Shown in pieces: positions 296-15,258 of a stretch of 64,000 bases of DNA. Both the position numbers and the translations under genes were made by a program. The notes beneath the pieces are model-generated. The model saw only the letters and a program-made list of their open reading frames with translations, was not told where the DNA came from and did not search any database. The stretch lies in contig JADFNM010000001.1 in assembly GCA_022563395.1 (NCBI GenBank), forward strand, positions 270,342-334,341. The letters are read 5' to 3'. Positions within the stretch are counted from its first letter, which is position 1; each line of letters starts with the position of its first letter. The DNA comes from Patescibacteria group bacterium (lineage in GTDB: Bacteria; Patescibacteriota; Minisyncoccia; Minisyncoccales; UBA10102).

Positions 296-412
296 TATCT
301 TATCAAAAAATCACCATTCTGGCGATCTTTAGCACAAACGTCGTACAACATATAATGGACGTCATTTAGTCTCCCTCTGTACTCTCAAGTCCGGCCTCAT
401 ATAATATACGTC
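296..412 (-). repeat. family-A intergenic module, copy 1 (diverged)
   Basis: AAAAAATCACC-N5-GGCGA hairpin at 305-325 plus the TCAAGTCCGGCCTCATATAATATACGTC box at 385-412. Confidence 0.7.
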
Positions 413-594
413 TTTAATTTAATGTGTCTTAATCACGACCTTACTATCTTAAGAATAAGGTTACTAATACTCCTATTGCTATTCCTTTAATGAATGCAAT
501 CCAGACTACCCAATTACTCACTTTACTTAGCCACCATTTAAATATCTTCATAGTTATAAATCAAACTTATTATCATTTTATCTGACAATTCTAT

Positions 595-652
595 TCTATC
601 AAAAAACCGCCTTTCTAGCGACTTTGAGTCCAGCCTTATATATTGAACGTCT
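595..652 (-). repeat. family-A module, copy 2 (short form)
   Basis: CTATCAAAAAACCGCCTTTCTAGCGACTTTGAGTCCAGCCTTATATATTGAACGTC. Confidence 0.85.
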
Positions 653-681
653 TTAAATCCACTATCATAATTGCAAGGTCT

Positions 682-969
682 CTATTCTTCAAAAACCCAG
701 TCTTTGAGCTCTTCGTATGATACGGGATCACATATCAATCTTTTTCTTTCTGCGTCATAAAAACTAGGCACAACGAGATTCCCTCTGCAATGCTCTTTAT
801 AGAGATCTCTCATATCTTCCATTCTCTGATGATTTTCTGCGTCATGCCACGCTTCGCGCTTTACAATCTCTACCCCCTCTTCCGCTATCAACCGTTTCAC
901 TATGGGTATAACAGCTAAGCAATCTGGACACTCTCGCCCATAAAAAAATTCGATACGTTTTTTAATCAT
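682..969 (-). CDS. thioredoxin-fold / glutaredoxin-like small redox protein
   Basis: CPDC motif near the N-terminus in a ~95 aa protein. ATG at 969 preferred over the TTG at 984, which lies inside the upstream repeat. Confidence 0.65.
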   Translation of the reverse strand: MIKKRIEFFYGRECPDCLAVIPIVKRLIAEEGVEIVKREAWHDAENHQRMEDMRDLYKEHCRGNLVVPSFYDAERKRLICDPVSYEELKDWVFEE

Positions 970-977
970 ATTCAATT

Positions 978-1053
978 CTATCAAAAAATCGCCCTTTTAG
1001 CGATGCTGAGTCCCCCTTTATGCGCCTGAGTCCGGCTTCATATATTGTGGGAC
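978..1053 (-). repeat. family-A module, copy 3 (long form)
   Basis: Spans exactly from the NUDIX stop region to 9 nt before the thioredoxin-like ATG. Confidence 0.85.
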
Positions 1054-1057
1054 TAAC

Positions 1058-1525
1058 TCATCCCTGAGCTCGTTGTATGGCTTCTCGAGCATAGAACTTA
1101 ATACTAGATTCCAGGCGAAACCGTGAATCATCAAGTTCATCTTCTGTGAGCCATCGAATCTCGGTGTGTTCCTCTTCTGCAAGTTGAACCACATCAGTCT
1201 CAGTCCGCAAAAAATACACAAGACCAATGTGCTTGTGCGTTTTACTGATAGGATGAATATCTACATATGCTGGCGTATATAAAAACTTTCGACTAGGGTC
1301 CTCAAGACTTAGGTTCGGTTTTGACGCCAGCACTTCAACATTTTCAATACCGCTTTCTTCTTTAACTTCACGCAACAAAGCCTCATCAGGATCTTCATCA
1401 AGCTCTATGTGACCACCAAGGGGAAGCCACTTTTGGAGTTCCTTATGAAAAATAAAGAGCACCTTACGCTTATACACAACATAGGCTACGATTGTCCAAT
1501 CAATTTGCTCGTGAATATGAGACAT
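1058..1525 (-). CDS. NUDIX hydrolase
   Basis: Nudix box GGHIELDEDPDEALLREVKEESGI (GX5EX7REUXEEXGU). Confidence 0.85.
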   Translation of the reverse strand: MSHIHEQIDWTIVAYVVYKRKVLFIFHKELQKWLPLGGHIELDEDPDEALLREVKEESGIENVEVLASKPNLSLEDPSRKFLYTPAYVDIHPISKTHKHIGLVYFLRTETDVVQLAEEEHTEIRWLTEDELDDSRFRLESSIKFYAREAIQRAQG

Positions 1526-1533
1526 ATTATATT

Positions 1534-1573
1534 CTTATCGTAACAAAAAACCGCCTTTTTGGCGACTTTAAGC
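1534..1573 (-). repeat. family-A module, copy 4 (hairpin part only)
   Basis: AACAAAAAACCGCCTTTTTGGCGACTTTAAGC, 9 nt upstream of the NUDIX ATG. Confidence 0.85.
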
Positions 1574-1591
1574 ATAGCTTATTATCTTGTA

Positions 1592-3043
1592 TTACTTCCC
1601 AAGCTTAAGAGTTTCATCAATCCTAACTTGATCAACGAATTCCTTTACGTGACTCACAAGAATCATAGCACCCTCATACCGACTCAGTGCCTTTGCAATA
1701 ATAGGCAAATGCCTAAAGTTCATATGGTTTGTTGGTTCGTCTAAAATAAGCAAACCGGGCTTTTGCAATACTAACTGTGCTAAAGAAACCAGGCCTTTTT
1801 GCCCTTCAGACAAGCTCCCAATCTTTGAATAAATAATATCTTGATCTATGAGAAATCCGGCAGCTAATGCTCGTAATTTTTCATTGGTGACACCAGTAAA
1901 TACATTAACTAAAGAGTCATACACTATATCCTCAAAATTCAGTGTAGAAAAATCTTGACGATAATAACCAATCTTTACATCAGGATTTACCGTTATGCCT
2001 TTTGTATTGCGAAAAGCAATAGATTCCAATAATGTACTCTTCCCAATACCATTTGGGCCCGCTAAAAGAAGGTGATCGCCCTTGCGCAAAGATATGTTTA
2101 CAGAATGATGCGATTCTTTTCCATCAACCATACTCGTTACGATGAAAATATTAAGAATCTCTCCGGACAGCGATTCCTGCACGGGAATTATAAAGGAACG
2201 GATTGTCTTATCCTCTTTTCGCACCTCCACCTTATTCTCCTCTGACTCTTTAATCTCATCTCTCAGCTTTTTTGCAACAAGCCGCATCTTTCCACCTTTA
2301 TGAGAAAAAAAGTTAGCCTTATCTTTATTCTCTTGAATCACTTTTGCGAGTTGAGCATTCTTTCTCTTCTCTTGCTCAACTCTCGCTGTAATTTCTTTTA
2401 CTACATCAAAGTAGTTCCCCGTATATCTCTCTATTCTTTGTGTAAATATATCTAAATATAGTACGCCTTCGGTAAATGCATTCAAAAAGTCTGCATCGTG
2501 AGAAATGACTATAACGGTCTTATCATAGTTAATCAAGAATTGCTTTAAGTGTTCAATCCCCTCTGGATCCAAGTTATTGGTTGGCTCGTCCAACAACAGC
2601 AAATCTGGTTTTTGAATTAAGGCTGAAGCTAAAAGCAGTCGTGCTTGCTGTCCTCCAGAGAAAGATCGTATAATTCTGTCATGATCCGCCTTAAAGTTCA
2701 CTACTAAAAGAATCTCATCAATCTTTGGATCTATATCATATACCTTTTCTTTGAAACAAGCCTCAAAGAATTCACGCACTGTTATATCCAATTGTTCTTG
2801 CGGTATTACTTGCCGCGAGGTAGCGATAGTAAGTCCTCTTTCAACATGTATATTGCCGTCGGTAGATTCCAGCTTTCCATTCATTAACTGAAAGATTGTA
2901 CTCTTTCCAGCACCATTCTGCCCCATCAAAGTCATCTTTGATCCTCGCCTAACAGAAAAATCCACCTCAGAGAGGATGGATTGTTTGCTCGTATATTTAA
3001 ATGATACTTCACCAAATCTGACGATAACATTCCCATTGCTCAT
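1592..3043 (-). CDS. ABC-F family ATPase (two ABC domains, no TM domain)
   Basis: Walker A GQNGAGKST and GPNGIGKST, signatures FSGGQQAR and LSEGQKG, charged inter-domain linker. Confidence 0.85.
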   Translation of the reverse strand: MSNGNVIVRFGEVSFKYTSKQSILSEVDFSVRRGSKMTLMGQNGAGKSTIFQLMNGKLESTDGNIHVERGLTIATSRQVIPQEQLDITVREFFEACFKEKVYDIDPKIDEILLVVNFKADHDRIIRSFSGGQQARLLLASALIQKPDLLLLDEPTNNLDPEGIEHLKQFLINYDKTVIVISHDADFLNAFTEGVLYLDIFTQRIERYTGNYFDVVKEITARVEQEKRKNAQLAKVIQENKDKANFFSHKGGKMRLVAKKLRDEIKESEENKVEVRKEDKTIRSFIIPVQESLSGEILNIFIVTSMVDGKESHHSVNISLRKGDHLLLAGPNGIGKSTLLESIAFRNTKGITVNPDVKIGYYRQDFSTLNFEDIVYDSLVNVFTGVTNEKLRALAAGFLIDQDIIYSKIGSLSEGQKGLVSLAQLVLQKPGLLILDEPTNHMNFRHLPIIAKALSRYEGAMILVSHVKEFVDQVRIDETLKLGK

Positions 3044-3097
3044 CTAGACATAGTGCAACTTTTTGAGTCAGGAGTCAATAAGTCCTATGTATTCGTT

Positions 3098-3124
3098 AAT
3101 AAAAAACCGCCTGCTTGGCGATTC
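3098..3124 (-). repeat. family-A module, copy 5 (hairpin part only)
   Basis: AATAAAAAACCGCCTGCTTGGCGATTC, upstream of the ABC-F gene. Confidence 0.75.
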
Positions 3125-3147
3125 TTGAAAAAGTATAAGTTGACCAC

Positions 3148-3176
3148 TTGCACAAGAAGCTCACACAGTTTAGAAT
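3148..3176 (+). promoter_or_regulatory. sigma70-type promoter candidate for the radical SAM gene
   Basis: TTGCAC (3148-3153), 17-nt spacer, TAGAAT (3171-3176). GGGAGG Shine-Dalgarno at 3195-3200, 8 nt before the ATG at 3209. Confidence 0.5.
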
Positions 3177-3208
3177 GACTAAAACCTAGCAAGAGGGAGG
3201 TAAGTGAG

Positions 3209-4285
3209 ATGGTTCTTTCCAAAATAGAAGAAATAAAAATCCGACTTATGGTGGAAGGTATGGCGGTAGACCCAGGTGTGCGGAACCTAGCCCTTGGCCC
3301 CCTTACTTTAGCTGAGTACGCTTCGACGTCAGGAGTTATCCTGGTGCTTCCAGATGAGGTCTGGGTGAATGCCCCTATTGCGGAACATAACCCAAATTTT
3401 GTTGTCCGGCCTTCCATCATACTCTCTGCGCACGAGGATGAATTGGTACTTCAGGTGAATGGAGAAGAGATCCCAGTTCGATTTAGCCCTATGCCTCAGG
3501 ACCATGAAACAATGAGCCGATTGGGTGCGGTTATACATGCTGACCGTGTGCGCATTTCCCCCGTCGATGGGTGTGCTGTAACCTGCCTATTCTGTAATAT
3601 CCCATATGAGGACAGGTACCAAAGGAGAGAAGCTGCGGATTTGCTGCAAGGCATCACACTCGCGCTCCACGACGAAGTGGTACCGGCACAGCATATCCTT
3701 ATTTCGGGAGGAACCCCTCAACCCGGGGATTACGATTGGTTGAATGAGATGTATGAGCGGGTGGCGAATGCCTTCCGTGCTACCGTGGACATCATGATGG
3801 TACCAGAGGAAGGGTTACTCGACCCCGGGCATCTTAAAGAAATCGGCATTCACGGTCTATCTATCAATCTGGAGGTTTACAACCAAGAAGTCGCCCGGCG
3901 GATCATGGCAGGCAAATGGAAAGTGGGACTTGACCGCTACCTTAATTTCATTGGGAAAGCGGTGGAGATCTTTGGCGAAGGGAAGGTTCGGTCTCTCCTT
4001 CTTGTGGGCATTGAGTCGCTCGAAGATACCTTGCGGGGCGTGAGCGCATTGGCGGAGCGCGGATGCGACCCTGTCTTGAGCCCGTTCCGTCCCGACCCAG
4101 CAACACCCTTGCGGAACAATGTTCCTCCTTCTATAGAGCTCCTTAGGGAGGCATGGGAACGCAGCATAGAGATTGTAGGACGCTATTCAGGAGTCGTCCT
4201 CGGTCCGCGCTGCATCCCCTGCACCCACAACACTTTGACCTTCCCAGATGATAGCGGGAGGTACTACTACTCCCGCGTACACTAG
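3209..4285 (+). CDS. radical SAM enzyme, subfamily unknown, with ~110 aa N-terminal extra domain
   Basis: CAVTCLFC = CX3CX2C cluster motif, ISGGTPQ SAM-binding-like motif. GC-rich relative to flanks. Only large plus-strand gene in the first 20 kb. Confidence 0.8.
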   Translation: MVLSKIEEIKIRLMVEGMAVDPGVRNLALGPLTLAEYASTSGVILVLPDEVWVNAPIAEHNPNFVVRPSIILSAHEDELVLQVNGEEIPVRFSPMPQDHETMSRLGAVIHADRVRISPVDGCAVTCLFCNIPYEDRYQRREAADLLQGITLALHDEVVPAQHILISGGTPQPGDYDWLNEMYERVANAFRATVDIMMVPEEGLLDPGHLKEIGIHGLSINLEVYNQEVARRIMAGKWKVGLDRYLNFIGKAVEIFGEGKVRSLLLVGIESLEDTLRGVSALAERGCDPVLSPFRPDPATPLRNNVPPSIELLREAWERSIEIVGRYSGVVLGPRCIPCTHNTLTFPDDSGRYYYSRVH

Positions 4286-4307
4286 GTAATGAGAGAAGGG
4301 AGAGTAG

Positions 4308-4339
4308 AAGGCCCGTTCACCTGATGAGCGGGCCTTTTC
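4308..4339 (+). terminator. rho-independent terminator after the radical SAM gene
   Basis: Stem AAGGCCCG (4308-4315) / CGGGCCTT (4329-4336) followed by a T-run. Confidence 0.7.
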
Positions 4340-4344
4340 ACTAT

Positions 4345-5466
4345 TCAATGAAGAGAACAAACTTTCTCACGAAAGCCAATCATATTGAATTGTGCTGCTT
4401 GCACAGCGCAATACGCACCTGCTTTGGGAATTGCCACGAGATCGCCTTCACGGAGTTTCGGCATTTTCTTGAAAGGCACAAGTATATCGCCAACTTGGCA
4501 AGAAGCGCCAAGAATTGCTCCGTAGACAAGAGGTGATTTGCGAAAACTATACGGCCTTCTTTCATTTAACAAGCCTCTGATATGATGAATTGTGCCGTCC
4601 GAGAAGAAATAATATCGTCCCCTCCTTTGTAATACGGAATGGATACGGACAATATAATATCCTGCGCCGCGCACGATGTAGTTTCCAGGTTCCACTTGTA
4701 TTTTTAGAATTCTTTTATGTTTCTTGCCGAACTTTTCTGCCTCTGCAATAATTCTTTTTGCATATGTTGTGATATCAAACTCGGACTCCTCGCTTCCAAT
4801 AGGGGCTGCAATACCCCCACCGATGTTAATTACCAGAACAGAAGGATGTTTTTCCGTGATTTTAAGTAACCGCTGAAACGCTTCAATAAATAGACCAATT
4901 CGATATGAGTCCGAGCTTGTATGCATATGTAGTCTTGTTATACGATTTCTTAGTTTCGCAGGAATGCTTCTGAACTCTTCTGGAGAAACACCAAAATGGC
5001 TCTCTTTACTTCCCGAGGCAATTCCTGCCCCGTAACTCCACCCGATACGGGGATTGATGCGCAGTCCCACGTCTTTCATGGAGGCAATCTTTTTAAGGTC
5101 GGGAATACTATTTGCATTTGCTTTTACACTATTCCTCTTTATATATTGCAGTATCTCTGAGGTAAGTACTGGACCAGTGAAAGAAATATCCTTAGAAACT
5201 TTCCTCGCCGCCTTTAGTTCTTCCAAAGAAGAGACATGAAACCCCAAACCCATCCTACTTAGCTGCTTGAGTATCTCTGGGTTATTGTTCGCCTTTACAG
5301 CATAGAGCAGTTTGAAGTTTGTGTACGAAGAGAAGGCATTCTTGATTCTTTCCACCTGGCCTTTTACATGGTTTACATCATACAGAAAAACGGGCGTTCT
5401 TTCGCTCAAGGCTTTAGCATTCTCCAGCGTTGCTTTAATGCACTCAAGATCATTCACCGAAATCAT
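4345..5466 (-). CDS. PLP-dependent fold-type III decarboxylase (Orn/DAP/Arg decarboxylase family, LysA-like)
   Basis: YAVKANNNPEIL PLP-lysine motif and INIGGG glycine loop. Starts 5 nt after the ATP-grasp stop codon. Confidence 0.8.
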   Translation of the reverse strand: MISVNDLECIKATLENAKALSERTPVFLYDVNHVKGQVERIKNAFSSYTNFKLLYAVKANNNPEILKQLSRMGLGFHVSSLEELKAARKVSKDISFTGPVLTSEILQYIKRNSVKANANSIPDLKKIASMKDVGLRINPRIGWSYGAGIASGSKESHFGVSPEEFRSIPAKLRNRITRLHMHTSSDSYRIGLFIEAFQRLLKITEKHPSVLVINIGGGIAAPIGSEESEFDITTYAKRIIAEAEKFGKKHKRILKIQVEPGNYIVRGAGYYIVRIHSVLQRRGRYYFFSDGTIHHIRGLLNERRPYSFRKSPLVYGAILGASCQVGDILVPFKKMPKLREGDLVAIPKAGAYCAVQAAQFNMIGFREKVCSLH

Positions 5467-5471
5467 AGTAC

Positions 5472-6875
5472 CTATTGCAGTAAATCATGGGTTTTGGGGC
5501 TGTCAAAATAAAATTCCCAGTCGGTTGAATCAAAACTTGTCTCAATAATCTTGCCCACAGCCCCCCGTATTTTTTGTAGCGTCTGATCATACGACGTTCC
5601 TGTAGTAATATAGTATCCCGCGTTTCCTCCTGCGAATACATAACCTTTAGGATAGAACATCGCTTTGTAGGCAGCCCCTTTTTTCATAAATGGCGTGGAA
5701 GGGTTTTTGGAAGCGAAAACTCTTGTAATCTTTTGTCCACTCTTGTATGGCTTTATCTTACTGTGCGCCCATACATAATCAACCTGAAAGTTTGGGTAGG
5801 AAATATCAGGAATATCGTTGTGCAAGAATATGCGGAGTTCAAGGTCTATAAGATCTATGCCCTTGCTGCGAGCGGAAAGGATGTGACAAAGGTAACCACC
5901 TTGTCTCCGAGGATTCAAATCTGTAGGAAAAACAGAACCATTTTTATCAATAATAAAGTCGAGCCCAAATATACCCCGGAAACCCTTACGGGAAAGATAG
6001 TTCCCCACCACTGCAGTCGTTTTTCTCATTATGCCCTTGTGCCGTTCTGTGGCCTTTGAAGGGTAGATATTACCAATATATTGATTGCTGCGGAGAATCT
6101 GGTCTGAGATACAGTTCACAACAGTATTGTTTCTGCCTACTACTATAGCATTAGTGTTGGGGGATAATACAACATCCTCGATAAAGCGTGCCACAAGGAA
6201 TTCATTGTTTCGGTTAATACCTCGTAATTCATGCGAGAACGAGTCAATCTGGGCAGGATTGCTTATAATCCTGCTTTCGTGTCCTCCAGAACTAAAAGAT
6301 GCGGAAAGAAAAATAGGATATTGCTTTACAGTTCGTTGAACAGCAGCAAGGTTCTTAAAGATTTTGACTTCGTTCTTTGACAGACCTAGTTTATCAAAAA
6401 GCAGTTTATGCTGAACTTTATTATCATATTTCGTTACAACTTTTGAATCAGGGCCAAGAACAATCACTTTTGAGGAATTGAACGAAAGGTTGGTAGTCGT
6501 GAATGGAAGAAGAAATACGCGCTTTTGCTTCAAGATGAGTTTTCTAATAAAGTCTTTCACATAGGAAGATCTGCTAAATTCCTGATTAAGATCCTCATTC
6601 TCTGAGAGAAAGATGAAATTCTTTTCCCCAGTGTCTCTTTGTACTTTTTGCGCTCTCTGATTCATTACGAGGAAGTTCGCTTTTTGGAAATACTGATTGC
6701 TTCTTGCTGACACTACGAAAATGGGCTCAAAAGGTCTCTGAAAGCGATCCTGGAGTGCTTCTTTCCATAGCAGAGTAGCGTATTCAAAGCGGTCTACCAA
6801 AAAAGAGAAGAAGTACTCTCTCCGATTTGTAAATATGTTTGGATCCAGTTTTGCGGTGGAAATATCAGAGGCCAT
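5472..6875 (-). CDS. ATP-grasp ligase with long N-terminal pre-ATP-grasp region
   Basis: C-terminal half GFRGIFGLDFIIDKNGSVFPTDLNPRRQGG resembles an ATP-grasp nucleotide/Mg site. Substrate unknown. Confidence 0.6.
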   Translation of the reverse strand: MASDISTAKLDPNIFTNRREYFFSFLVDRFEYATLLWKEALQDRFQRPFEPIFVVSARSNQYFQKANFLVMNQRAQKVQRDTGEKNFIFLSENEDLNQEFSRSSYVKDFIRKLILKQKRVFLLPFTTTNLSFNSSKVIVLGPDSKVVTKYDNKVQHKLLFDKLGLSKNEVKIFKNLAAVQRTVKQYPIFLSASFSSGGHESRIISNPAQIDSFSHELRGINRNNEFLVARFIEDVVLSPNTNAIVVGRNNTVVNCISDQILRSNQYIGNIYPSKATERHKGIMRKTTAVVGNYLSRKGFRGIFGLDFIIDKNGSVFPTDLNPRRQGGYLCHILSARSKGIDLIDLELRIFLHNDIPDISYPNFQVDYVWAHSKIKPYKSGQKITRVFASKNPSTPFMKKGAAYKAMFYPKGYVFAGGNAGYYITTGTSYDQTLQKIRGAVGKIIETSFDSTDWEFYFDSPKTHDLLQ

Positions 6876-8429: not shown

Positions 8430-9500
8430 TCATTCCTCTTCGTAGATCAATGTATCTTTGTACCCAGCAAACCAAGCAAACCAGAATGTAGAACTTGAAG
8501 GTATTGATATTTGTTCTCCATCTTTAATTAAGAACACTTGAGCAGAACGTCCTGCTATATCTCCAATAATTTCAAACTCTTGTCCACTCACTATATCTCT
8601 GATCACTTTTCCCTGAACTATTTTCACTGGATATGCCTTTGATATCCCATCAATTGTAATTCCCACCACTTGATCCTTGGGTAGTAATCTGTTGTCCTGA
8701 ATACTAACAGGAAATCCGGGTTGCGAATCTGGATTTTCATATGCTCTATATGGATCACTAAGATAATTTCTTGTATATCCGGTATCAAGCGAGAGTACCT
8801 TGGTATCCTCGTGCAAAGCTCGCCACTCTTTCCACAACATCATCGTGGAAGGAAGTATAGAAAGCCGTTGTCCTTTTAAAGATCCGGTAAGAGCTTCACC
8901 AGTAATTTGGTACCAATAACTCTCAGTTTCTCTATCATACATTACCATGGCACTCTCATATAAAGCTCCTGTATTACCAAATGAAAGCAGCTGCTCATTA
9001 AGGTACCGGTCAAATACAATACCAGAGTTGCACAATGGGCAATACGTAATTACTATTTTCCGTCCTCCAATTGTCTCGTTCACAATCTCATGCCAATTCA
9101 TAATCTTAATCGGGTAAGCTCTTGCATCTCCAGCAAATTCTACGCCTAAAACAATATCGTCATTTTGAATCCATCTTTCTGCTTCCAAACTACTTTCGTA
9201 CTCTGGAGAATTAAGCGGTGGAATAGCGTCTCTGGGGACATCTTGAATAATGGGGATTATAGTGTCTTTACGCTGCGCATCCTCTCTGGATGGAATTACT
9301 TTCTCCGCCTTATTTGTGTAAATAAACATAAAAATGCTCAGTCCTATACCAAGCAAAGCAAGGAGCAGAACCAATAGAATCCCTAATATATGAACCAATT
9401 TTTGCCATTTTTCTACATAGCGGGATTCTTTTCCCCCTTTTCGCTCAAACAGTTTTTGTTGTTGTTCGGTAAACATTTGCTTTAACAAAAATCTTGACAT
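8430..9500 (-). CDS. DUF3179 family protein with N-terminal TM helix
   Basis: DDIVLGVEFAGDARAYPIKIMNWHEIVNE...ITYCPLCNSG...SYWYQITGEA matches my recollection of DUF3179 conserved blocks. Confidence 0.6.
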   Translation of the reverse strand: MSRFLLKQMFTEQQQKLFERKGGKESRYVEKWQKLVHILGILLVLLLALLGIGLSIFMFIYTNKAEKVIPSREDAQRKDTIIPIIQDVPRDAIPPLNSPEYESSLEAERWIQNDDIVLGVEFAGDARAYPIKIMNWHEIVNETIGGRKIVITYCPLCNSGIVFDRYLNEQLLSFGNTGALYESAMVMYDRETESYWYQITGEALTGSLKGQRLSILPSTMMLWKEWRALHEDTKVLSLDTGYTRNYLSDPYRAYENPDSQPGFPVSIQDNRLLPKDQVVGITIDGISKAYPVKIVQGKVIRDIVSGQEFEIIGDIAGRSAQVFLIKDGEQISIPSSSTFWFAWFAGYKDTLIYEEE

Positions 9501-9507
9501 CTTTACC

Positions 9508-9582
9508 CTATCAAAAAACCGCCTTTTTGGCGACTTTGAGTCCCCTCTATACGCTTGAGTCCGGCTTCATATATTGTAAGAC
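9508..9582 (-). repeat. family-A module, copy 8 (long form, closest to consensus)
   Basis: Fills the gap between the phosphatase stop (9582) and the DUF3179 ATG (9500). Confidence 0.9.
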
Positions 9583-10214
9583 TAGAGCTCTCCTAAATGA
9601 GCGTAATCGTTCCAAGTGACAAGTTTCCAGTTCTCTTCACCATCTTCCAAGTGAAAAACAGTGATGCCAGTATTTGTGGTACGCACATCGAAAGACTCTA
9701 CATCTCCAAAAGGAAGAGACTCCGGGCCAAAGAGCACCACGCTCAGCATCATCTTTAAGGGAAGACTATGCATAACAACAAGGATGTTGTCTTTTGAACC
9801 CTTTTTCATTTCCTCCAAAAACTGAACTATCCTATCTCGCAACTCACCGATAGATTCCTCATCCTGCCATTTCCAGTAGAGGTCATCTTTGTGTAAAACA
9901 AGCTTGTTGTGAAATTCTTTTGCTTTCTTACCATCAATAGAAATATCCAAAAGGGACGATGGTTTACCCCACTCGTTCACGAGCTCTGTTATGTGAATAG
10001 AGAGCTTGAGCTTTTCATTGATGATTTCGGCTGTCTCCTGCGCTCTTTTAAGCGAACTCGAATACAGTATATCTATTGGTATATGCTCAAACCTCTTTTG
10101 GAGAATATATGCCTGCTCTCTTCCCTCTTTAGAAAGAGAGGTTTCTTTTCTTTGATAAATACGTTTATCATTTGCTTCACTTTTGCCGTGGCGCACAAGA
10201 TACAGTGTTTTCAT
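9582..10214 (-). CDS. histidine phosphatase (phosphoglycerate mutase family)
   Basis: RHG catalytic motif (LVRHGKSEAN) and a downstream H in VVMHSLPL. Confidence 0.8.
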   Translation of the reverse strand: MKTLYLVRHGKSEANDKRIYQRKETSLSKEGREQAYILQKRFEHIPIDILYSSSLKRAQETAEIINEKLKLSIHITELVNEWGKPSSLLDISIDGKKAKEFHNKLVLHKDDLYWKWQDEESIGELRDRIVQFLEEMKKGSKDNILVVMHSLPLKMMLSVVLFGPESLPFGDVESFDVRTTNTGITVFHLEDGEENWKLVTWNDYAHLGEL

Positions 10215-10217
10215 ATT

Positions 10218-10251
10218 CCTATCGTAACAAAAAACCGCCTTTTTGGCGATC
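10218..10251 (-). repeat. family-A module, copy 9 (hairpin part only)
   Basis: CCTATCGTAACAAAAAACCGCCTTTTTGGCGATC, 4 nt upstream of the phosphatase ATG. Confidence 0.85.
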
Positions 10252-10326
10252 TATTGGCCCTGGAAGACCTTTCGACAGACTCAGGGCGGGGGCCAGGCAT
10301 TTCTCGCTCCCTCATTCACCCTTTTT

Positions 10327-10376
10327 GCCTAAATCTCGTTTAAGCATTCTTCGCTGTTGCCTAAACGAGATTTAGG
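10327..10376. repeat. family-B nested palindrome (inverted pair)
   Basis: GCCTAAATCTCGTTTAAGC-N13-GCCTAAACGAGATTTAGG, followed by GGATAACT. Confidence 0.9.
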
Positions 10377-10395
10377 TGTGGATAACTCAGGAAAA

Positions 10396-10477
10396 CCAAA
10401 AAAACCGCCTCCTTGGCGACTTTGAGTCCGGCTTCATATATTGGACGTAATTTGGTCCCCTTTTATACACCTGAGAC
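10396..10477 (-). repeat. family-A module, copy 10 (sub-boxes in permuted order)
   Basis: Hairpin plus distal box are fused, and the GGTCCCCTTTTATACACCTGAGAC box sits on the other side. Confidence 0.8.
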
Positions 10478-10568
10478 TTTAATATCGCCCTATTTTATCT
10501 ACGCATCGTGAACAACGCTAAACCTGTTGTTGGGCATTAAATATCTAATGTTCCATCTATAGGATTAA

Positions 10569-10769
10569 CTAAAGTCCTAAGCTATCAAGGTTAAGGCTGC
10601 TTAAAAATATTGGTATGACAATAATAAGTCCCAGGATGGGCAAAACAATCATCGCAGCAGTTATAACAAGAGTTAAAAGGAAATACTTCCTTGTTTTTTC
10701 AACCGAGGAATAAATTGCATCGATCTTTTTTTCTAGCACTTCAAACTTGTTGGAAATTTCTTGATCCAT
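10569..10769 (-). CDS. small membrane protein (66 aa)
   Basis: One long hydrophobic helix. Family-A module directly upstream. Confidence 0.4.
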   Translation of the reverse strand: MDQEISNKFEVLEKKIDAIYSSVEKTRKYFLLTLVITAAMIVLPILGLIIVIPIFLSSLNLDSLGL

Positions 10770-10778
10770 ATTTTAATT

Positions 10779-10854
10779 CTACACAAAAACCGCTATTTTA
10801 GCAACTTGAAGTTCTTCTTTATACACTTAAGTCCGGCCTCATATATTCTCCGAC
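10779..10854 (-). repeat. family-A module, copy 11 (long form, diverged)
   Basis: Minus strand reads TTGCTA, 17-nt spacer, TAGAAT, ending 8 nt before the ATG at 10769. Confidence 0.8.
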
Positions 10855-10858
10855 TCTC

Positions 10859-11386
10859 CTATCGCATCCTCTTAATATACTCATCTCGGCTGATCAGTTT
10901 TCTCATATCAGTTACTTTATCAAGATAGACAACTCCATTAAGATGGTCCATCTCATGCTGAATTACTCTAGCAAGCAAACCACTAGCTCGCAGGGTAAAA
11001 ATCTCTCCATCGCCATTTTGAGCCTTTATCACTATGCCCTTTGACCGCCTCACTGGACCGAACAACTGGCCAGACGCAACGCTTCCACATCCCTCATGCC
11101 CAACACTCTGATCTTTTGAGAAAGAGACAATGCGAGGATTTATATAGACCCGAAGAGAATCTGTTTCCTGGAGTTTTCTCGTTTTCGTCTTTCGTAGCTC
11201 AGTTACAAAGACTCGAAGACTCACCCCAATCTGCGGAGCAGCCATGCCAACAAGCCCATGGAAACGCATAGAGTCAGTCAAATCCTTAACAACCTTTATA
11301 ACCGTCTTTGAAGAAACTCTACCTACTCTCTGCGATTTCTTGCGAATAATGGAGCTCCCTATTTGTGTAGCTTTTCGTTTAACCAT
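10859..11386 (-). CDS. def: peptide deformylase
   Basis: Motifs GMAAPQIG, EGCGS, QHEMDHLNG. Confidence 0.88.
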   Translation of the reverse strand: MVKRKATQIGSSIIRKKSQRVGRVSSKTVIKVVKDLTDSMRFHGLVGMAAPQIGVSLRVFVTELRKTKTRKLQETDSLRVYINPRIVSFSKDQSVGHEGCGSVASGQLFGPVRRSKGIVIKAQNGDGEIFTLRASGLLARVIQHEMDHLNGVVYLDKVTDMRKLISRDEYIKRMR

Positions 11387-11398
11387 ACCTTCTCTAAT

Positions 11399-11426
11399 CT
11401 ATCAAAAAATCGCCTATCTGGCGATC
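11399..11426 (-). repeat. family-A module, copy 12 (hairpin part only)
   Basis: CTATCAAAAAATCGCCTATCTGGCGATC, upstream of def. Confidence 0.85.
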
Positions 11427-11437
11427 TCTTAAGTTTT

Positions 11438-11487
11438 GCTTAAATCTCGTTTAAGCACAAACCCATATTGCTTAAACGAGATTTAGG
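11438..11487. repeat. family-B nested palindrome (inverted pair)
   Basis: GCTTAAATCTCGTTTAAGC-N13-GCTTAAACGAGATTTAGG, followed by GGATAACT and CTAAATGGAATTTAG. Confidence 0.9.
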
Positions 11488-11517
11488 CGGGGATAACTAA
11501 ATGGAATTTAGGTTTCC

Positions 11518-12771
11518 TTAGCGAAATCTGCTCTGCCGCCTGCCAAATCCTGTATGTCGCTGCCTAGACCCGCTACGTCCACGCCCTCTCTGCTGGGGCC
11601 GGGAAGGCCTCTCTACTGCCCGCGACTTGGGAGCGGCCAAAATACCCTCCGGGAGAGGTAAAGCGAGGATTCGCTTTTGGATTGCTCGCTCTATGGCACG
11701 AACCTCTTTCCCTTCGCTCACCATAGCAAAAGTAATGGCGTGTCCCTTGGTGCCGGCTCTCGCCGTGCGCCCGATGCGATGAACGTAGTCATCTGAAGTA
11801 CCTGGCAAATCATAGTTCAAGACCAGCTCAATGCCCATAACGTCAATGCCTCTTGAAGCAATGTCGGTCGCCACGAGCACACGGTATTTCCCGGACTTGA
11901 ATCCGTCTAACGCCTCCCTTCTTTGGTTCAAACTCCTGTTGGAATGCAACTCTGAGGCCCGTATGCCAAGATCCCGTATCTGGCGCGCCACTTTCTTTGC
12001 TCCATACTTTGTTCTGGTAAACACAAGAGTTGGGCCCTTGTAGCTTTCAAGCAGTCGTTTTAAAAGTTCTGGCTTCTGCTCTCTCGCAACCACGAAAAGC
12101 TCTTGTGAAACCTCTTCTAGGGTTGTGCCGGGCGGGGCAATCTCTACCCGTAGCGGAGTTTTCATATAGTCTGTTGCCAGCTTCATTATCTCGGGGGGCA
12201 TGGTGGCACAAAACAGCATGGTCTGGCGCTCTTTGGGAAGGGCCTTAAGAATGGTTCGAATCTGGGGAAGAAAGCCCATATCAAACATACGGTCCGCCTC
12301 GTCAAGCACCACTATGGAAACGCTGGACAAAGAAAGGGTTTTTTGCAAAAGATGGTCGTTAATTCTTCCCGGTGTTCCAACGATAATGTGCGGCTTACGG
12401 GAGATATCACGGCGCTGTCGTCCAAAGGGAAGTCCGCCAATGAGCACGGCGGTTTTAAGACCCTGCTGTTGTCCCACCTTTTTTAGAAACGCTTCTACCT
12501 GAAGCGCAAGCTCTCGCGTAGGCAGCACCACCAACCCCTGTCTCTTTGTGCCAAGGAGCATTTGTATCATGGGAATGCCAAAAGCAAGGGTCTTTCCGGT
12601 TCCCGTCTGGGCTATGCCTACCAGGTCTTTTCCCTGAATCCCAAGAGGGATGGTACGAACCTGGATAGGGGTGGGTCTGGTGAATCCAGTCCGCTTGAGT
12701 ACCTCTAGGAGACCGGGCGCTATGCCCAATCCATAGAAGTTCTGTTCTCTGTTTTCTGAAGATTCCTGCAT
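11518..12771 (-). CDS. DEAD-box ATP-dependent RNA helicase with Arg-rich C-terminal tail
   Basis: Q-motif/TPIQ, AQTGTGKT, DEAD, HRIGRTARAG. GC-rich. ATG at 12771 preferred over the GTG at 12822. Confidence 0.9.
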   Translation of the reverse strand: MQESSENREQNFYGLGIAPGLLEVLKRTGFTRPTPIQVRTIPLGIQGKDLVGIAQTGTGKTLAFGIPMIQMLLGTKRQGLVVLPTRELALQVEAFLKKVGQQQGLKTAVLIGGLPFGRQRRDISRKPHIIVGTPGRINDHLLQKTLSLSSVSIVVLDEADRMFDMGFLPQIRTILKALPKERQTMLFCATMPPEIMKLATDYMKTPLRVEIAPPGTTLEEVSQELFVVAREQKPELLKRLLESYKGPTLVFTRTKYGAKKVARQIRDLGIRASELHSNRSLNQRREALDGFKSGKYRVLVATDIASRGIDVMGIELVLNYDLPGTSDDYVHRIGRTARAGTKGHAITFAMVSEGKEVRAIERAIQKRILALPLPEGILAAPKSRAVERPSRPQQRGRGRSGSRQRHTGFGRRQSRFR

Positions 12772-12923
12772 AAGAAAAGCCCTGGACGCGCTTGCCAGGG
12801 CACACGTTAGTATAGTATACACTCTTTTTAAGATACTGCAACCTTAAAAATTACAAACTGAATGCTAAAAGCGGCAAAAATCTCAAGTGATGCTGGGCTC
12901 GGTTTAGTTTTCCCCACGCATTT

Positions 12924-13796
12924 CTACCGGGCCACATCCCCGCCGGTAATAAAAATAATCTCGCCCGTCATGTAACTGGAGTCAGCTTCGGAGGCCAGGT
13001 ATACATAGGCCGGAGCCATTTCGTCTGGCTGGCCCGGACGACCCATGGGATTATACTTGCCAAAGTGCACAATATCCTCTTCTGATGAGTCTTTAATAGT
13101 TTGCAAGGGCGTCCAAACTGGCCCTGGAGCAACACAGTTCACGCGAATACCGCGCGGCAAGAGCTCTTTTGCAAGGGTTTTGGTTAAAGTATGCGTTGCA
13201 GCTTTGGTTCCAGAATATATCGGGTAGCCACCTCCACGCGATCCCACTATTGACCCCGTGTTTATGATACATGTACCTTCTTTCATATGTTTGAGTGCAG
13301 CGCGGGTCATGTAATAGTAGCTGAATACGTTCACTTGGTACATGCGTTCCAGCTCTTTGTCCGAGAACTTCTCAATATCGTCTGCAGGGGACATGGTAGC
13401 CACGTTGTTGACAAGGATATCCAGAGAGCCAAACTCCTGCACGGTCTTGTCTACGGCCTTCTGGCAGAAGGCGCTATCTGAAACATCACCCTCAAGGCAC
13501 AGGCACTTTTTGCCCAACTTTTCAATCTCTTGCGTAAGTATCTCTGCGTCCCGGCTTTCTACAGGCAGATACGTAATGGCAACATTTGCGCCCTCTCTGG
13601 CAAACAAAAAGGCAACTGCACGGCCAATTCCTGAATCCCCACCCGTGATGAGAGCGGTTTTCTTAAGAAGCTTGCCAGAGGGTTTGTACTCTTTTCCCTG
13701 ATACTGCGGCAAGGGCTTCATGTCTGCCTCTATCCCAGGGGGTTCTTGGTGCTGGGGTGGAAAAGGCGGGATTGGTCTTTTTGACTCAGACGCCAT
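12924..13796 (-). CDS. SDR family oxidoreductase (YghA / general-stress-protein-39-like)
   Basis: TGGDSGIGRA cofactor motif and YSGTK catalytic motif. Confidence 0.85.
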   Translation of the reverse strand: MASESKRPIPPFPPQHQEPPGIEADMKPLPQYQGKEYKPSGKLLKKTALITGGDSGIGRAVAFLFAREGANVAITYLPVESRDAEILTQEIEKLGKKCLCLEGDVSDSAFCQKAVDKTVQEFGSLDILVNNVATMSPADDIEKFSDKELERMYQVNVFSYYYMTRAALKHMKEGTCIINTGSIVGSRGGGYPIYSGTKAATHTLTKTLAKELLPRGIRVNCVAPGPVWTPLQTIKDSSEEDIVHFGKYNPMGRPGQPDEMAPAYVYLASEADSSYMTGEIIFITGGDVAR

Positions 13797-13799
13797 ACA

Positions 13800-13991
13800 T
13801 TACAGATGTTTCTTGATTAACCCGGTGAGCTCTTGAATGTGGTCTTCTTTATCCTTTTCCATCTTTTCCCAGAAGGCGTTGCAGTTTTCGCACTTCCCCG
13901 CGTCGCGCTTGTACACATCTTTGATGCGCCACAGACTTTTGTGCTCCACCACCAGCTGATTCATCAAGTTATACGTATGATTGTCAAACAT
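13800..13991 (-). CDS. small hypothetical protein (63 aa)
   Basis: ORF starts 3 nt downstream of the SDR gene. No family recognised. Confidence 0.4.
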   Translation of the reverse strand: MFDNHTYNLMNQLVVEHKSLWRIKDVYKRDAGKCENCNAFWEKMEKDKEDHIQELTGLIKKHL

Positions 13992-14048
13992 AGGGGCAAA
14001 ATACTCTATTAGACTTCTTTTTAAAACAACCTTTACTCATTTTAAAGT

Positions 14049-14103
14049 ATATCAAAAAACCGCCCGTTTGGCGATTTAAGTCCACGCTCATATATTGTAG
14101 GGC
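14049..14103 (-). repeat. family-A module, copy 13 (short form)
   Basis: TATATCAAAAAACCGCCCGTTTGGCGATTTAAGTCCACGCTCATATATTGTAGGGC. Confidence 0.85.
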
Positions 14104-14110
14104 TCATCCC

Positions 14111-15220
14111 CTAGCCAAAGGTGAAGGTGAAAAACTCAAGATTTAAAGAAGGAACAAGAAGTTCTAAGGTATGGGTACCATATTCCTCTTTTGTATCTAC
14201 AAGATTATACAAACTTGCACCCTGAACTTTCAAAAAAGAAGCGGTGCCCTGAAAAACAATATCCTCTCCCTTGTTCTTTTCAGTAAGATATTCCCCGTCT
14301 AGCTTCACTTCGGCCAGAATGTCTGCTTCTCCTTTTGTATCCAACACAAGATTCAGCTTATTTGCCTTGTAGCGAATAAGAACTTTCCCCTCCCCCTCTA
14401 CCAGTTGCGCAAACTCTGGGGCAATGCGCCAGGTTCCCACAAGATAAAAACGATTAAACTCTACTGCCTGGGGTTCTTTAAACTCGTGGGGTTCATTCAC
14501 TTGAACTGCCTCAATTGGGTTCCCGATGTTGTTAATACGAGAAGCTCCAAAGTATATCTCTGGAGTTCCAATGCTCTTAAAATCAACGCCTGCAGGGGGT
14601 TCTGTAACCTTGGTAATCTTGTCTAAAGAAAGGAGGCCTGCCTCAAGCAACAGCTGTTGTATTGCAGCCTCGGTCTCTGCATATTGCCCTTCCCCAAAAT
14701 GGGTGTAACGAATGTTCCCTTTTGCGTCAATTAAATAGAGTGCAGGCCAAAATCTATTCTCAAAAGCATTCCAGGTTGCATAGTTATTATCGAGGGCCAC
14801 GGGATACTCAACGCCGTACTCTTTCACATTCCTTCTTACATTCCCCTCATCCTCTTCAAACTCAAACTCCGGGGTATGCACCCCAAGAACAACAAGACCG
14901 TTATCTTTGTATTTTTCATGGAACGCTTCGATATGGGGGATGTTGCGAATACAGTTAATACAGGTATACGTCCAAAAATCCACCAGCACAACCTTGCCTT
15001 GAAGCTCCTTTAGTACAAGGGGTTCAGAATTCATCCAAGAGGTAAGGCCAACGAACTCTGGAGCTTTTTTAAGAATAGGCAACTCTTCGGAAGAACCCAG
15101 AAGATTCCTTATCTCCTCCAAGACAGGCTCACGGGAGGTAAGGAACTCTTGATCTCCAAGTATGGCGTACCCGACTGCAAAAATGACGATAGCAAGAAGA
15201 ACAAAAGTAATGAGTTTCAT
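14111..15220 (-). CDS. thioredoxin-like thiol-disulfide oxidoreductase (DipZ C-terminal-like), secreted or anchored
   Basis: N-terminal TM/signal, VVLVDFWTYTCINC (CxxC) redoxin motif, extra C-terminal beta-rich domain. Confidence 0.75.
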   Translation of the reverse strand: MKLITFVLLAIVIFAVGYAILGDQEFLTSREPVLEEIRNLLGSSEELPILKKAPEFVGLTSWMNSEPLVLKELQGKVVLVDFWTYTCINCIRNIPHIEAFHEKYKDNGLVVLGVHTPEFEFEEDEGNVRRNVKEYGVEYPVALDNNYATWNAFENRFWPALYLIDAKGNIRYTHFGEGQYAETEAAIQQLLLEAGLLSLDKITKVTEPPAGVDFKSIGTPEIYFGASRINNIGNPIEAVQVNEPHEFKEPQAVEFNRFYLVGTWRIAPEFAQLVEGEGKVLIRYKANKLNLVLDTKGEADILAEVKLDGEYLTEKNKGEDIVFQGTASFLKVQGASLYNLVDTKEEYGTHTLELLVPSLNLEFFTFTFG

Positions 15221-15229
15221 GGATATACT

Positions 15230-15258
15230 TTATCAGAAAACCACTTTCCTGGCGATTC
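15230..15258 (-). repeat. family-A module, copy 14 (hairpin part, diverged)
   Basis: TTATCAGAAAACCACTTTCCTGGCGATTC, 10 nt upstream of the redoxin ATG. Confidence 0.7.

Follow-up and report, generated by a model that had tools for sequence, protein, structure and literature searches.

The analysed stretch of DNA (64 kb, hereafter the window) carries a conserved hairpin/T-run module between its genes, as an earlier sequence-only reading had noted. By Pfam, these genes code for NUDIX, ABC-F-like, ATP-grasp plus decarboxylase, DUF3179, histidine phosphatase, deformylase and redoxin proteins, in agreement with the functions proposed in that reading. Matches to CTATCAAAAAACCGCC with at most three mismatches occur 11 times, on a single strand (expectation 0.85; this count was not equalled in any of 100 shuffles). 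A covariance model made from the module copies and run unfiltered over the entire window returned hairpin/T-run copies at exactly 15 sites, each of them on the minus (gene) strand, with E-values from 1.6e-9 to 4.8e-5; the next-best match has E = 0.047. Thirteen of these copies fall within 286–15262 and the remaining two at 44821–44867 and 46376–46422. The 14 + 2 copies originally counted match these 13 + 2 hairpins plus a copy at 8372–8403 that consists of Box A only. Box A occurs nine times in the window, and mid boxes are present in the long forms. The modules are as follows:

286–420, minus: composite junction of Box A (381–412), mid-like box, degenerate Box A and hairpin/T-run (covariance-model match 286–332); -35-like TCGCCA 320–325, -10 TAAGAT 297–302; ATG 6 nt on, opening a 56-aa zinc-ribbon ORF (120–290)
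582–655, minus: short form, Box A variant (about 625–650) and hairpin/T-run; TCGCTA 616–621, TAGAAT 593–598; the next ORF (35-aa membrane peptide) begins 41 nt downstream and is therefore not leaderless
964–1057, minus: long form filling the gap behind the NUDIX stop codon; Box A 1022–1053, mid box, hairpin; TCGCTA 998–1003, TAGAAT 975–980; ATG 5 nt on, opening a 95-aa ORF
1526–1572, minus: hairpin/T-run without Box A; -10 TACGAT 1537–1542; ATG of the NUDIX gene (1058–1525) 11 nt on
3082–3128, minus: hairpin/T-run only, between divergent genes; the nearby ABC-F-like gene is driven by a canonical promoter of its own, TTGACT-17-CACTAT, with ATG (3043) 6 nt on
6870–6966, minus: long form; Box A 6928–6959, mid box, hairpin; TCGCCA 6904–6909, TAGATT 6881–6886; ATG of the ATP-grasp gene (5472–6875) 5 nt on; strong separate terminator upstream at 7029–7060
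8372–8403, minus: Box A alone, then canonical promoter TTGACA-17-TACATT; ATG 7 nt on, opening a 49-aa ORF
9494–9582, minus: long form that takes up the gap from the histidine phosphatase stop codon to the start of DUF3179; Box A 9551–9582, mid box, hairpin; TCGCCA 9528–9533, TAGGGT 9505–9510; ATG 4 nt on
10210–10256, minus: hairpin/T-run; -10 TACGAT 10221–10226; ATG of the histidine phosphatase gene (9582–10214) 6 nt on
10380–10475, minus: terminator-like only, without -10; mid box, Box A (10418–10449), hairpin and T7, behind a 66-aa ORF
10765–10858, minus: long form behind the def stop codon; Box A 10823–10854, mid box, variant hairpin TTGCT/AGCGG; TTGCTA-17-TAGAAT; ATG 6 nt on, opening a 66-aa ORF
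11385–11431, minus: hairpin/T-run; -10 TAGATT 11396–11401; ATG of def (10859–11386) 9 nt on
14035–14103, minus: short form behind the redoxin stop codon; Box A 14072–14103, hairpin; TCGCCA-17-TATACT (promoter scan match, TG present); ATG 5 nt on opens no ORF of at least 30 aa, and a 63-aa ORF begins further down
15216–15262, minus: hairpin variant CGCC/AGTG in shifted register; -10 TAAAGT 15227–15232; ATG of the redoxin gene (14111–15220) 6 nt on
44821–44867, minus: degenerate hairpin TTGTC/GGCGG (all G.U-compatible) with T8; promoter TGATATACT ~20 nt further downstream, ahead of mreC
46376–46422, minus: hairpin, TCGCCA-17-TAGAGT; ATG 6 nt on, opening a 132-aa ORF

In 12 of the 15 copies a TAnnnT lies exactly 17 bp downstream of TCGCCA. 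The rule that an ATG closely follows the module held for ten copies, where an ORF-opening ATG is found 4–11 nt past TAnnnT, but not for the hairpins at 3082–3128, 10380–10426 and 44821–44867, which have no adjacent -10 or ATG. Likewise, the long forms fill the intergenic gap at 964–1057 and 9494–9582, but not at 6884–6958, where the gap is 214 nt and holds the separate terminator. Several details of the original description were found again: the spaced hexamers of the 10.78-kb copy, the GGACTCA direct repeat (copies 19–20 bp apart) and the permuted sub-box order (at 10.4 kb the mid box precedes Box A). GGACTCA by itself is not enriched across the window (10 matches, 7.3 expected).

Hairpin, -10 element and start codon

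An exact-pattern scan for hairpin/T-run/GATAG yielded at least 120 loci where about one was expected by our own estimate. Among the loci listed, almost every one is a Patescibacteria MAG, mostly Parcubacteria. The 54 downstream proteins that were tested gave 91 Pfam families, which, with the number of loci, suggests that the module is a general signal and not a regulon. The spread of the hairpin/promoter part over many Parcubacteria lineages does not support the idea of a local, MITE-like element, one of the possibilities first proposed; terminal inverted repeats and attC cores were not found either.

Taking all 15 copies in the window together, 98.1% of stem cells are paired. About one quarter (27/105) are G.U and would read as A.C mismatches on the opposite strand, and one compensatory C-G to U-A change is seen. 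Near-consensus variants in other CPR genomes comprise 22 G.U, 14 A.C and 15 other changes, and the strand asymmetry of pairing is weak outside the window. The left-arm T is retained in 202 of 217 copies, 198 of these pairing it with A (91) or G (107). In some promoters the hairpins CCGCCT/AGGCGG, ACTGCCC/GGGTAGT or ACCTC/GAGGT end at the same position before the T-run. Several copies stand directly behind tRNA genes. Leaderless promoters are of the hairpin type in 80 of 133 cases behind co-directional genes vs 7 of 20 behind divergent ones (p = 0.05), a borderline enrichment; the window hairpin at 3082–3128 sits between divergent genes, contrary to this trend. The low stability of the hairpin counts against termination: its fold energy has a median of -7.6 kcal/mol (range -3.1 to -14.1), that of other terminators in the window lies between -11 and -34 kcal/mol, and the U-run partly pairs with upstream A residues. 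The hairpin resembles a weak terminator in the sense RNA, at which transcription may end.

The promoter half was assessed in 123 modules from other CPR genomes, at loci all chosen for containing the motif, in which the four nucleotides after GATA were left unconstrained by the search pattern. These nucleotides form TAnnnT in nearly all of the 123 independent copies (TAGAAT 46, TATAAT 20, TAAAAT 12, TAGGAT 11). The unconstrained flanks give the extended -10 TGnTAKAAT, and TCGCCA invariably precedes the -10 by 17 bp. Among 89 cases, the first long ORF has its ATG 6 nt past the -10 hexamer in 33, 7 nt past it in 11 and 8 nt past it in 12 (56 in all), with a sharp peak at 6 nt, and only 3 of 57 ORFs starting within 8 nt have an SD-like motif. 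In the window, the start codon of the histidine phosphatase gene is supported by the uniform length of its homologues, nearly all of those listed being ~210 aa. The RpoD encoded in the window retains the motifs of regions 3.0 (VHMIE) and 4.2 known from E. coli, and the same genomes also have canonical TTGACA-17-TAnnnT leaderless promoters. TCGCCA matches TTGACA at only four of six positions, and promoters with an extended -10 may be able to do without a -35; both points count against TCGCCA as such an element. The comparative data favour the suggestion that GATAG is part of a -10 box close to the ATG and would give (near-)leaderless mRNAs. Of 179 exact hairpins, 158 are attached to a -10 element, and 13 are found at gene ends without a promoter. 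The hairpin is therefore coupled almost always to a -10 and not to gene ends generally, which would not be expected of a general terminator. This coupling and the fixed left-arm T are taken to reflect a dual constraint on the stem.

Box A and gene order in relatives

Box A and the mid box are lineage-specific: here and in close relatives the 3′ flank of each gene carries one to four units of ~20 nt (Box A, mid box). Box A is orthologous with its gene across relatives and, like the mid box, stays joined to the upstream gene's stop codon; it belongs to the 3′ flank of that gene and not to the downstream promoter. Seven of the nine Box A copies here have AGCC or GGCC, making them more uniform than those in the relative L131.

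Along the ~15-kb module-rich stretch, close relatives differ by a reshuffling of single genes. In relatives with 75–91% identical orthologues, the same single genes have different neighbours and a different order, and the promoter linkers beside orthologous genes are wholly different; the adjacent core region is perfectly syntenic and without modules. Five modules are present in 7.6 kb of L131 vs none in 29 kb of the syntenic L141 and L142. Contigs of the same strain break at modules; across six such contigs, structural polymorphism was not observed. As the array is permuted while the neighbouring core is syntenic, the earlier impression of a cassette-like array holds: gene order is conserved only in the core. 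The accompanying statement that the array is without an integrase stands for an integron integrase, but a Xer-like tyrosine recombinase is encoded ~4 kb past the left edge of the window; a tyrosine recombinase is found near the array in two genomes.

Proposed terminator-promoter linkers and alternative explanations

We consider it fairly probable that the linker is a weak sense-strand terminator fused to a leaderless extended -10 promoter, and that such linkers take part in gene shuffling. Among the roles that had been suggested, the comparative data point to the first, punctuation by a dual terminator/promoter unit. As sense RNA, (AAAG)UCGCC-A-NNNN-GGCGR followed by U6 would form a small, weak hairpin resembling an intrinsic terminator and damp upstream read-through. 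The 5′ arm with the first loop base (TCGCCA) would provide a -35-like hexamer exactly 17 bp upstream of the TG-preceded TAnnnT, and the T-run would form the spacer, making up a sigma-70 promoter with an extended -10. Transcription by RNA polymerase would begin ~6–7 nt past the TAnnnT hexamer, at the A of the ATG, giving a leaderless mRNA that would be translated. Such a double role would account for the conservation of one stem sequence in many Parcubacteria lineages. As direct repeats that separate monocistronic genes, the linkers are probably recombination substrates, and their recombination would be the reason that single-gene units are permuted, gained and lost with their orientation kept.

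That the module is a terminator only, with GATAG close to the ATG simply because intergenic spacers are very short, is very improbable: a hairpin and T-run behind co-directional genes and three window copies without a -10 would fit, but not the TAnnnT formed by search-free bases in nearly all 123 copies, the sharp ATG peak at 6 nt or the rarity of the hairpin at gene ends lacking a following promoter. The fixed distance to the -10, the promoter coupling of 158 of the 179 exact copies and the persistence of the same sequence over many Parcubacteria lineages would also suit an operator, in which the palindrome ATCGCC-N5-GGCGAT, from -35 to -17, binds a conserved dimeric regulator for global repression or tuning and its terminator likeness is incidental. 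Two more points in its favour are that the hairpin lacks the strength of an efficient terminator and that left-arm C-to-T and right-arm G-to-A changes are about equally common in other genomes. However, the half-sites are asymmetric (the left T is fixed, its partner A or G about equally), all but two window deviations retain RNA pairing via G.U, unrelated hairpins take its place in some promoters, the downstream genes are functionally very diverse and a candidate regulator was not identified; we find an operator quite unlikely.

Two further explanations address the array as a whole. The entire junction could be a selfish or semi-selfish mosaic repeat that spreads by duplication or gene conversion, carries terminator and promoter signals by chance and causes rearrangements by homologous recombination, which we hold to be unlikely. 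Its modular units of variable number and order, the greater uniformity of Box A than in L131, a module density that follows rearranged regions, the completely different linkers beside orthologues and the contig breaks speak for it; against it are the lack of terminal inverted repeats or signs of target duplications, the absence of polymorphism in the six contigs, a hairpin/promoter part conserved too widely for recent spread, the orthology of Box A with genes, and the absence of RAYT-like or other transposases in the sequence examined. An integron-like cassette array or CALIN with attC-type repeats is hardly credible and was largely refuted. Single, co-oriented, functionally unrelated genes, each with a 3′ repeat travelling along, their permuted order and the tyrosine recombinase near the array in two genomes would be expected of it. 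But that recombinase is XerC/XerD-like (about 215–227 bits), only a C-terminal fragment of it matches integron integrase models (88–104 bits vs a cut-off of 265), and it is located where the array ends downstream, in convergent orientation. Neither strand of the seven modules tested has a GTTRRRY or RYYYAAC core, three long modules folded as single-stranded DNA did not form the single long imperfect hairpin, and each unit has its own promoter.

Integron cassettes and CALINs share with the array co-oriented, unrelated single-gene units, a 3′ repeat and variable order and content, whereas the array is without IntI, attC architecture or core sites and has a promoter per unit. Leaderless genes with a -10 box ~6–7 nt from the start codon have been described in Actinobacteria and Deinococcus; the module resembles these in its ATG at the expected start site, the lack of a Shine-Dalgarno sequence and the conserved RpoD sigma-70 motifs. 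It also resembles a terminator abutting a sigma-70 extended -10 promoter (stem-loop with U-run, TGnTAnnnT), but there the two are separate, while the module shares bases between them (stem as -35 region, U-run as spacer). No description of such a shared-base module was found in the searchable literature. Ordinary terminators have only structure in common, whereas the module keeps one stem sequence across many Parcubacteria lineages. Mosaic intergenic repeats are known as REP/BIME in E. coli, BOX (boxA-boxB(n)-boxC) in Streptococcus pneumoniae and Correia elements in Neisseria. Like the module, these are short modular units of variable number and order between co-directional genes, with possible terminator or promoter activity, rearrangements and assembly breaks. 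Unlike them, the module is without terminal inverted repeats or an associated transposase in what was seen, its 3′ unit keeps a fixed register to the next start, and its Box A is inherited with the gene.

Copies of the module and their spread across Parcubacteria

In the intergenic regions of the window that we read, a recurrent string in gene (minus-strand) orientation, AAGTCGCCAAAAAGGCGGTTTTTTGATAGnnT, is followed after a few bases by ATG. A 16-mer search allowing up to 3 mismatches gave 11 matches in the window, all on a single strand, against 0.85 expected. A covariance model made from the aligned copies was used in an unfiltered search of the whole 64 kb and yielded 15 copies, every one gene-oriented, with E-values of 1.6e-9 to 4.8e-5, while the best remaining match had E = 0.047. 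Thirteen of these copies lie at 286-15262 and the other two at 44.8 and 46.4 kb. Both searches thus bear out the repeated module ahead of start codons that had been described in a sequence-only reading. The details of that description mostly stand as well, except for the long form at 6884-6958: it does not fill its gap, which is 214 nt long and also holds a strong separate terminator.

In the long forms the hairpin is accompanied by two further units, Box A (CAATATATGArGCCGGACTyA; 9 occurrences in the window) and the mid box (GyrTATAAAGGGGGACTCA). Box A, mid box and hairpin combine as 1-4 units in either order, as in a mosaic repeat. The module resembles the REP/BIME or BOX-type mosaic repeats in its many extragenic copies, few unit types and variable combinations. 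Rfam had no family matching the module: tRNAs alone passed the gathering score, and with the limit relaxed to E = 1 the 1-16 kb region gave just a chance FinP match outside the modules. Pattern scans of viral contigs gave 0 matches, and thus no sign of a phage-borne module. Some independent metagenome contigs of the same strain stop exactly at modules (L003 at window ~991; L002 and L004 at ~1590) and L004 carries a small inverted piece at ~1590, which indicates that the repeats fragment assemblies.

Many lineages of Parcubacteria share the hairpin/T-run/GATAG part. The pattern TCGCYANNNNGGCGRTTTTTTGATA, which has ~20 specified bases and for which we estimate ~1 chance match in 596 Gb, was found in exact form at at least 120 loci, nearly all in Patescibacteria MAGs among the matches listed. 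The lineages among these matches include Nealsonbacteria, Paceibacterota, Parcubacteria, Komeilibacteria, Staskawiczbacteria, Wildermuthbacteria, Spechtbacteria and others. These CPR loci were selected for containing the motif. Bases left free by the pattern are conserved too in the matches listed, namely an A-run ahead of the stem, GAAT, TAAT, AAAT or GGAT after GATA, and an ATG a few bases on.

Promoter, hairpin and their possible dual reading

Among the matches listed, the free bases give TAGAAT (46), TATAAT (20), TAAAAT (12) or TAGGAT (11) in 89 of the 123 foreign copies. This hexamer is always preceded by TGA in the foreign copies, and together they form a predicted extended -10 element. 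In the 89 copies with a recognisable ORF, again among the matches listed, the ATG lies 6, 7 or 8 nt past the hexamer in 33, 11 and 12 cases, respectively (56/89 in total), and just 3 of 57 ORFs starting within 8 nt have an SD-like motif. The window copies are similar: TAnnnT is seen exactly 17 bp past TCGCCA in 12/15 copies, eight of which have TGn ahead of it, and an ORF-opening ATG follows TAnnnT after 4-11 nt in 10 copies (4-6 nt in 8, exactly 6 nt in 5). A six-base gap would place the A of ATG at the canonical +1, predicting a leaderless start. For the histidine phosphatase, the start codon is supported by the length of the listed homologues, nearly all of which have ~210 aa.

The RpoD of the window (46848-48212) keeps a region 3.0 motif, VHMIE, and a 12-residue region 4.2 motif, which in E. 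coli sigma-70 read TG and TTGACA. It also has a Lys/Arg-rich N-terminal extension of ~100 aa before region 1.1. A sigma-54 reading of GGCGG-N-TTGA was rejected, as the register is one off from what we take to be the sigma-54 consensus and the conserved TG/TAnnnT suits sigma-70. Canonical TTGACA-17-TAnnnT leaderless promoters are also present in the same genomes, and SD-led genes occur as well, e.g. with GGAGG ahead of the DHDPS gene. The window has the following leaderless-type promoters without the TCGCC hairpin.

Leaderless-type promoters without TCGCC hairpin in the window
3044-3075: TTGACT-17-CACTAT-6-ATG, ABC-F gene
8341-8369: TTGACA-17-TACATT-7-ATG, 49-aa ORF
53825-53870: TGGTAGAAT-8-ATG, 3' of a strong terminator
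55960-56000: TTGACA-17-TAGAGT, 3' of a strong terminator

On the antisense (plus) strand, two short modules contain TTGGCG-17/18-TATATT (10413-10442 and 14068-14096). This is a 9/12 sigma-70-like match, which may be due to chance and would read into the upstream gene at its 3' end.

The stems of the window copies have 5-9 pairs, 3-4 of them G-C. Taken over the 15 copies, the sense RNA has 98.1% of its stem cells paired, and about a quarter (27/105) are G.U, which pair on the sense strand only and become A.C mismatches on the opposite strand. Stem variation consists almost wholly of one-sided changes to G.U, along with one compensatory change of C-G to U-A. A run of T5-T8 is found 3' of the stem in 14/15 copies, the exception being the interrupted TTCTTT of 46376-46422. 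In the CPR loci, among the matches listed, module contexts are co-directional in 136 cases and divergent in 19, and hairpin-type promoters make up 80/133 of those behind co-directional genes versus 7/20 behind divergent ones (p = 0.05). Of the divergent cases in the CPR loci, some in fact come after a tRNA gene; in the window, one hairpin lies in a divergent gap. In some CPR promoters, unrelated hairpins terminate at the same spot ahead of the T-run.

Three observations weaken the reading of the hairpin as a terminator. The module hairpins fold weakly, with a median of -7.6 kcal/mol versus -11 to -34 for other terminators of the window. Across other CPR genomes the bias of G.U over A.C is small (22 vs 14 among the matches listed). 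Furthermore, 158 of 179 exact TCGCC hairpins among the matches listed are attached to a -10, and they are almost never seen where a gene ends and no promoter is present. The main rival to the combined terminator/promoter reading is that the palindrome is the binding site of a global regulator. Of the roles first considered, the dual terminator/promoter unit is the one that the comparison across genomes favours: the extended -10, the ATG at 6-8 nt and the pairing in sense RNA speak for it, whereas the weakness of the hairpins and their rarity without a promoter speak against it.

A terminator combined with a promoter could explain why one stem sequence is kept. TCGCCA is always 17 bp from the -10 and agrees with TTGACA at T1, G3, C5 and A6, i.e. 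at 4/6 positions; the variants TTGCTA and TTGTCA occur in window copies. Among the matches listed, the T of the left arm is kept in 202/217 copies, in 198 of which it is paired with A (91) or G (107). A fixed T with A or G as partner would be expected of a T recognised in the DNA, where it is base 1 of the -35, opposite a partner that needs only to pair in the RNA. The terminator stem would then be constrained to resemble a -35 hexamer and the U-run to act as promoter spacer. We infer from these sequence patterns that the module may be a terminator stem doubling as -35, with its U-run as the spacer. The whole analysis is computational; where transcripts start, that they terminate at the hairpin, and how the recombination discussed below would work are predictions.

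Box A and gene order in the accessory array

The first 15 kb of the window hold mainly stand-alone genes of accessory type, and the other 49 kb a core with pyrG, rplI, dnaK/dnaJ/grpE, ftsQ, mur, serS, lysS, greA, PBP, mreC, rpoD, dnaG, groEL and uvrA. Outside the source genome, Box A and the mid box were found just in the close relatives L128, L131 and L137-L140, and a Box A scan of metagenome contigs yielded L128 as its only true relative, besides one match in high-GC DNA that is due to chance. The two boxes are variants of one ~20-nt unit, TATAwr ... GGACTCAA, of which each junction has 1-4 in variable order. All phosphatase orthologues have Box A directly 3' of the stop codon, including those with a convergent gene next or with no hairpin behind the box, and the same goes for the NUDIX gene. 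Thus, Box A belongs to the 3' flank of the upstream gene. A small stem around Box A, AGTCC/GGACT, is possible: one change is compensatory (AGCC/GGCT in L131) and several lead to G.U, but pairing fails in several copies and RNA-fold z-scores range from +0.3 to -2.6. Box A was rejected as a tiny ORF (ATG AAG ...), since several copies have no ATG. An NrdR box was rejected too: CACAATATAT, which the copies share, is similar to what we take to be the NrdR consensus, but only its AT core is palindromic.

Five phosphatase orthologues, at 91, 84, 82, 77 and 75% identity, each have different neighbours. In three of them the nucleotide homology to the window spans from approximately just 5' of the ATG to Box A, and in the other two it reaches into the generic flanking linker. 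The order of array genes also differs in relatives, all of which are short metagenome contigs.

Array genes in relatives
L131: NUDIX, phosphatase and def units (78-83% nucleotide identity) in the order NUDIX-phosphatase-def, versus def-phosphatase-NUDIX in the window, which lacks the other genes of L131
L137: two other genes between redoxin and phosphatase, where the window has five
L128: ABC-F (89% nucleotide identity), then a YgjP-like gene in place of NUDIX

As the L131 units are all co-oriented, a simple inversion cannot account for the change of order. The core behaves differently: two relatives with a GreA 82-84% identical are perfectly syntenic with the window over 14 kb, from mreC to grpE. 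These two contigs have no modules, compared with five in 7.6 kb of L131, and one of them has a sample number close to that of L131. The cassette-like appearance of the array suggested earlier is hence confirmed by the phosphatase neighbours and the permuted order in L131, and the gene-order comparison proposed alongside it gave rearrangement in the array only.

If the directly repeated linkers underwent homologous recombination, gene orientation would be kept, in line with these data. The array stops at the left edge of the window, with a Xer-like tyrosine recombinase and restriction/defence genes beyond.

Genes bordering the array
L143:12561-20468, beyond window coordinate 1: 316-aa Xer-like tyrosine recombinase, Mrr-type endonuclease, HEPN protein, two N6/N4 methyltransferases
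L128:1076-4163, near the array: similar recombinase and Mrr-domain gene

XerC/XerD models give the highest scores for the 316-aa recombinases near the array, and integron integrase models match a C-terminal fragment only, far below cut-off, so an IntI-type integrase beside the array was rejected. The absence of an integrase noted at the outset accordingly holds for the integron type, the recombinase nearby being XerC/XerD-like. No attC cores (RYYYAAC ... GTTRRRY, imperfect palindrome of 55-140 nt) were found on either strand of 7 modules tested, and three long modules folded as ssDNA gave no single long hairpin. The MITE-like role that had been considered was not supported: the best terminal inverted match is just 6-9/12, and six contigs of the same strain show no indels, i.e. 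no presence/absence polymorphism.

We tentatively propose that a conserved, fused terminator/promoter linker might be the standard means by which Parcubacteria express leaderless genes that stand alone. The direct-repeat linkers and gene-attached 3' boxes of at least one lineage near Wildermuthbacteria might be the joints of an integrase-independent cassette system. Single genes would then be relocated, gained and lost in an accessory region set aside within a 0.67-Mb genome, always arriving in register with a ready-made promoter. We regard this full picture as possible rather than probable.

A full-text literature search on expression signals and intergenic repeats in CPR, Patescibacteria and Parcubacteria gave no description of the module, and a Nanosynbacter lyticus paper with 188 RNA-seq start sites does not treat its motif. 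Terminator, extended -10 promoter, leaderless start and mosaic repeat are each of a known kind; the apparent novelty is that they are fused in a single unit, conserved in sequence over many Parcubacteria lineages, and that this unit is associated with single-gene shuffling. To our knowledge, hardly any Patescibacteria have been cultured, and their transcription signals are therefore essentially uncharacterised. A sequence-defined terminator/promoter/leaderless unit common to Parcubacteria would give gene finders the right start codons; gene callers had trimmed several starts on the same-strain metagenome contigs. It would also supply portable expression parts for the emerging genetics of CPR and show how regulatory signals are compressed in ultra-small genomes. 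The array itself is a concrete, testable case of a minimal genome's flexible accessory compartment without classical mobile-element machinery.

Source genome and other repeats

Proteins of the window recur on several metagenome contigs at 99.8-100% nucleotide identity, and its GreA is found at 100% identity, with 81% of the query covered, in an NCBI Patescibacteria group bacterium sequence. Among named relatives, the one closest to the histidine phosphatase comes from a Wildermuthbacteria MAG (57% identity).

A motif aACAGGTTCTAACaTCGTCC-N6-9-GGAGC lies directly 3' of the stop codon at 44947-44990 and 45508-45551 (minus strand). Among the matches listed it has 31 copies in 23 of 121 sources, 29 of them outside the window, in 22 CPR loci (e.g. 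L018:7914, L036, L052, L095), often immediately 5' of a TCGCC hairpin or a canonical promoter; Rfam had no match for it. A tRNA T-arm-like hairpin, CTCGGTTCGAGnGACCGAG, is seen just 5' of the hairpin/promoter module in other Parcubacteria (L009, L065, L073, e.g. at L073:2347, and L122).

A second repeat family of the window consists of long, mostly perfect palindromes built on TGCTTAAACGAGATTTAAGCA, which probably serve this genome as its strong terminators or else form a REP-like family.

Palindromes built on TGCTTAAACGAGATTTAAGCA
10323-10387
11434-11498
26414-26494
34894-34913
39743-39797 (folds at -21 kcal/mol)
44884-44962
46485-46563
53911-53954
61262-61347

Finally, a 60-nt repeat with 87% identity is shared by 28248-28307, in a hairpin-rich spacer by tRNA-Lys, and 47994-48053, in the 5' coding part of rpoD.
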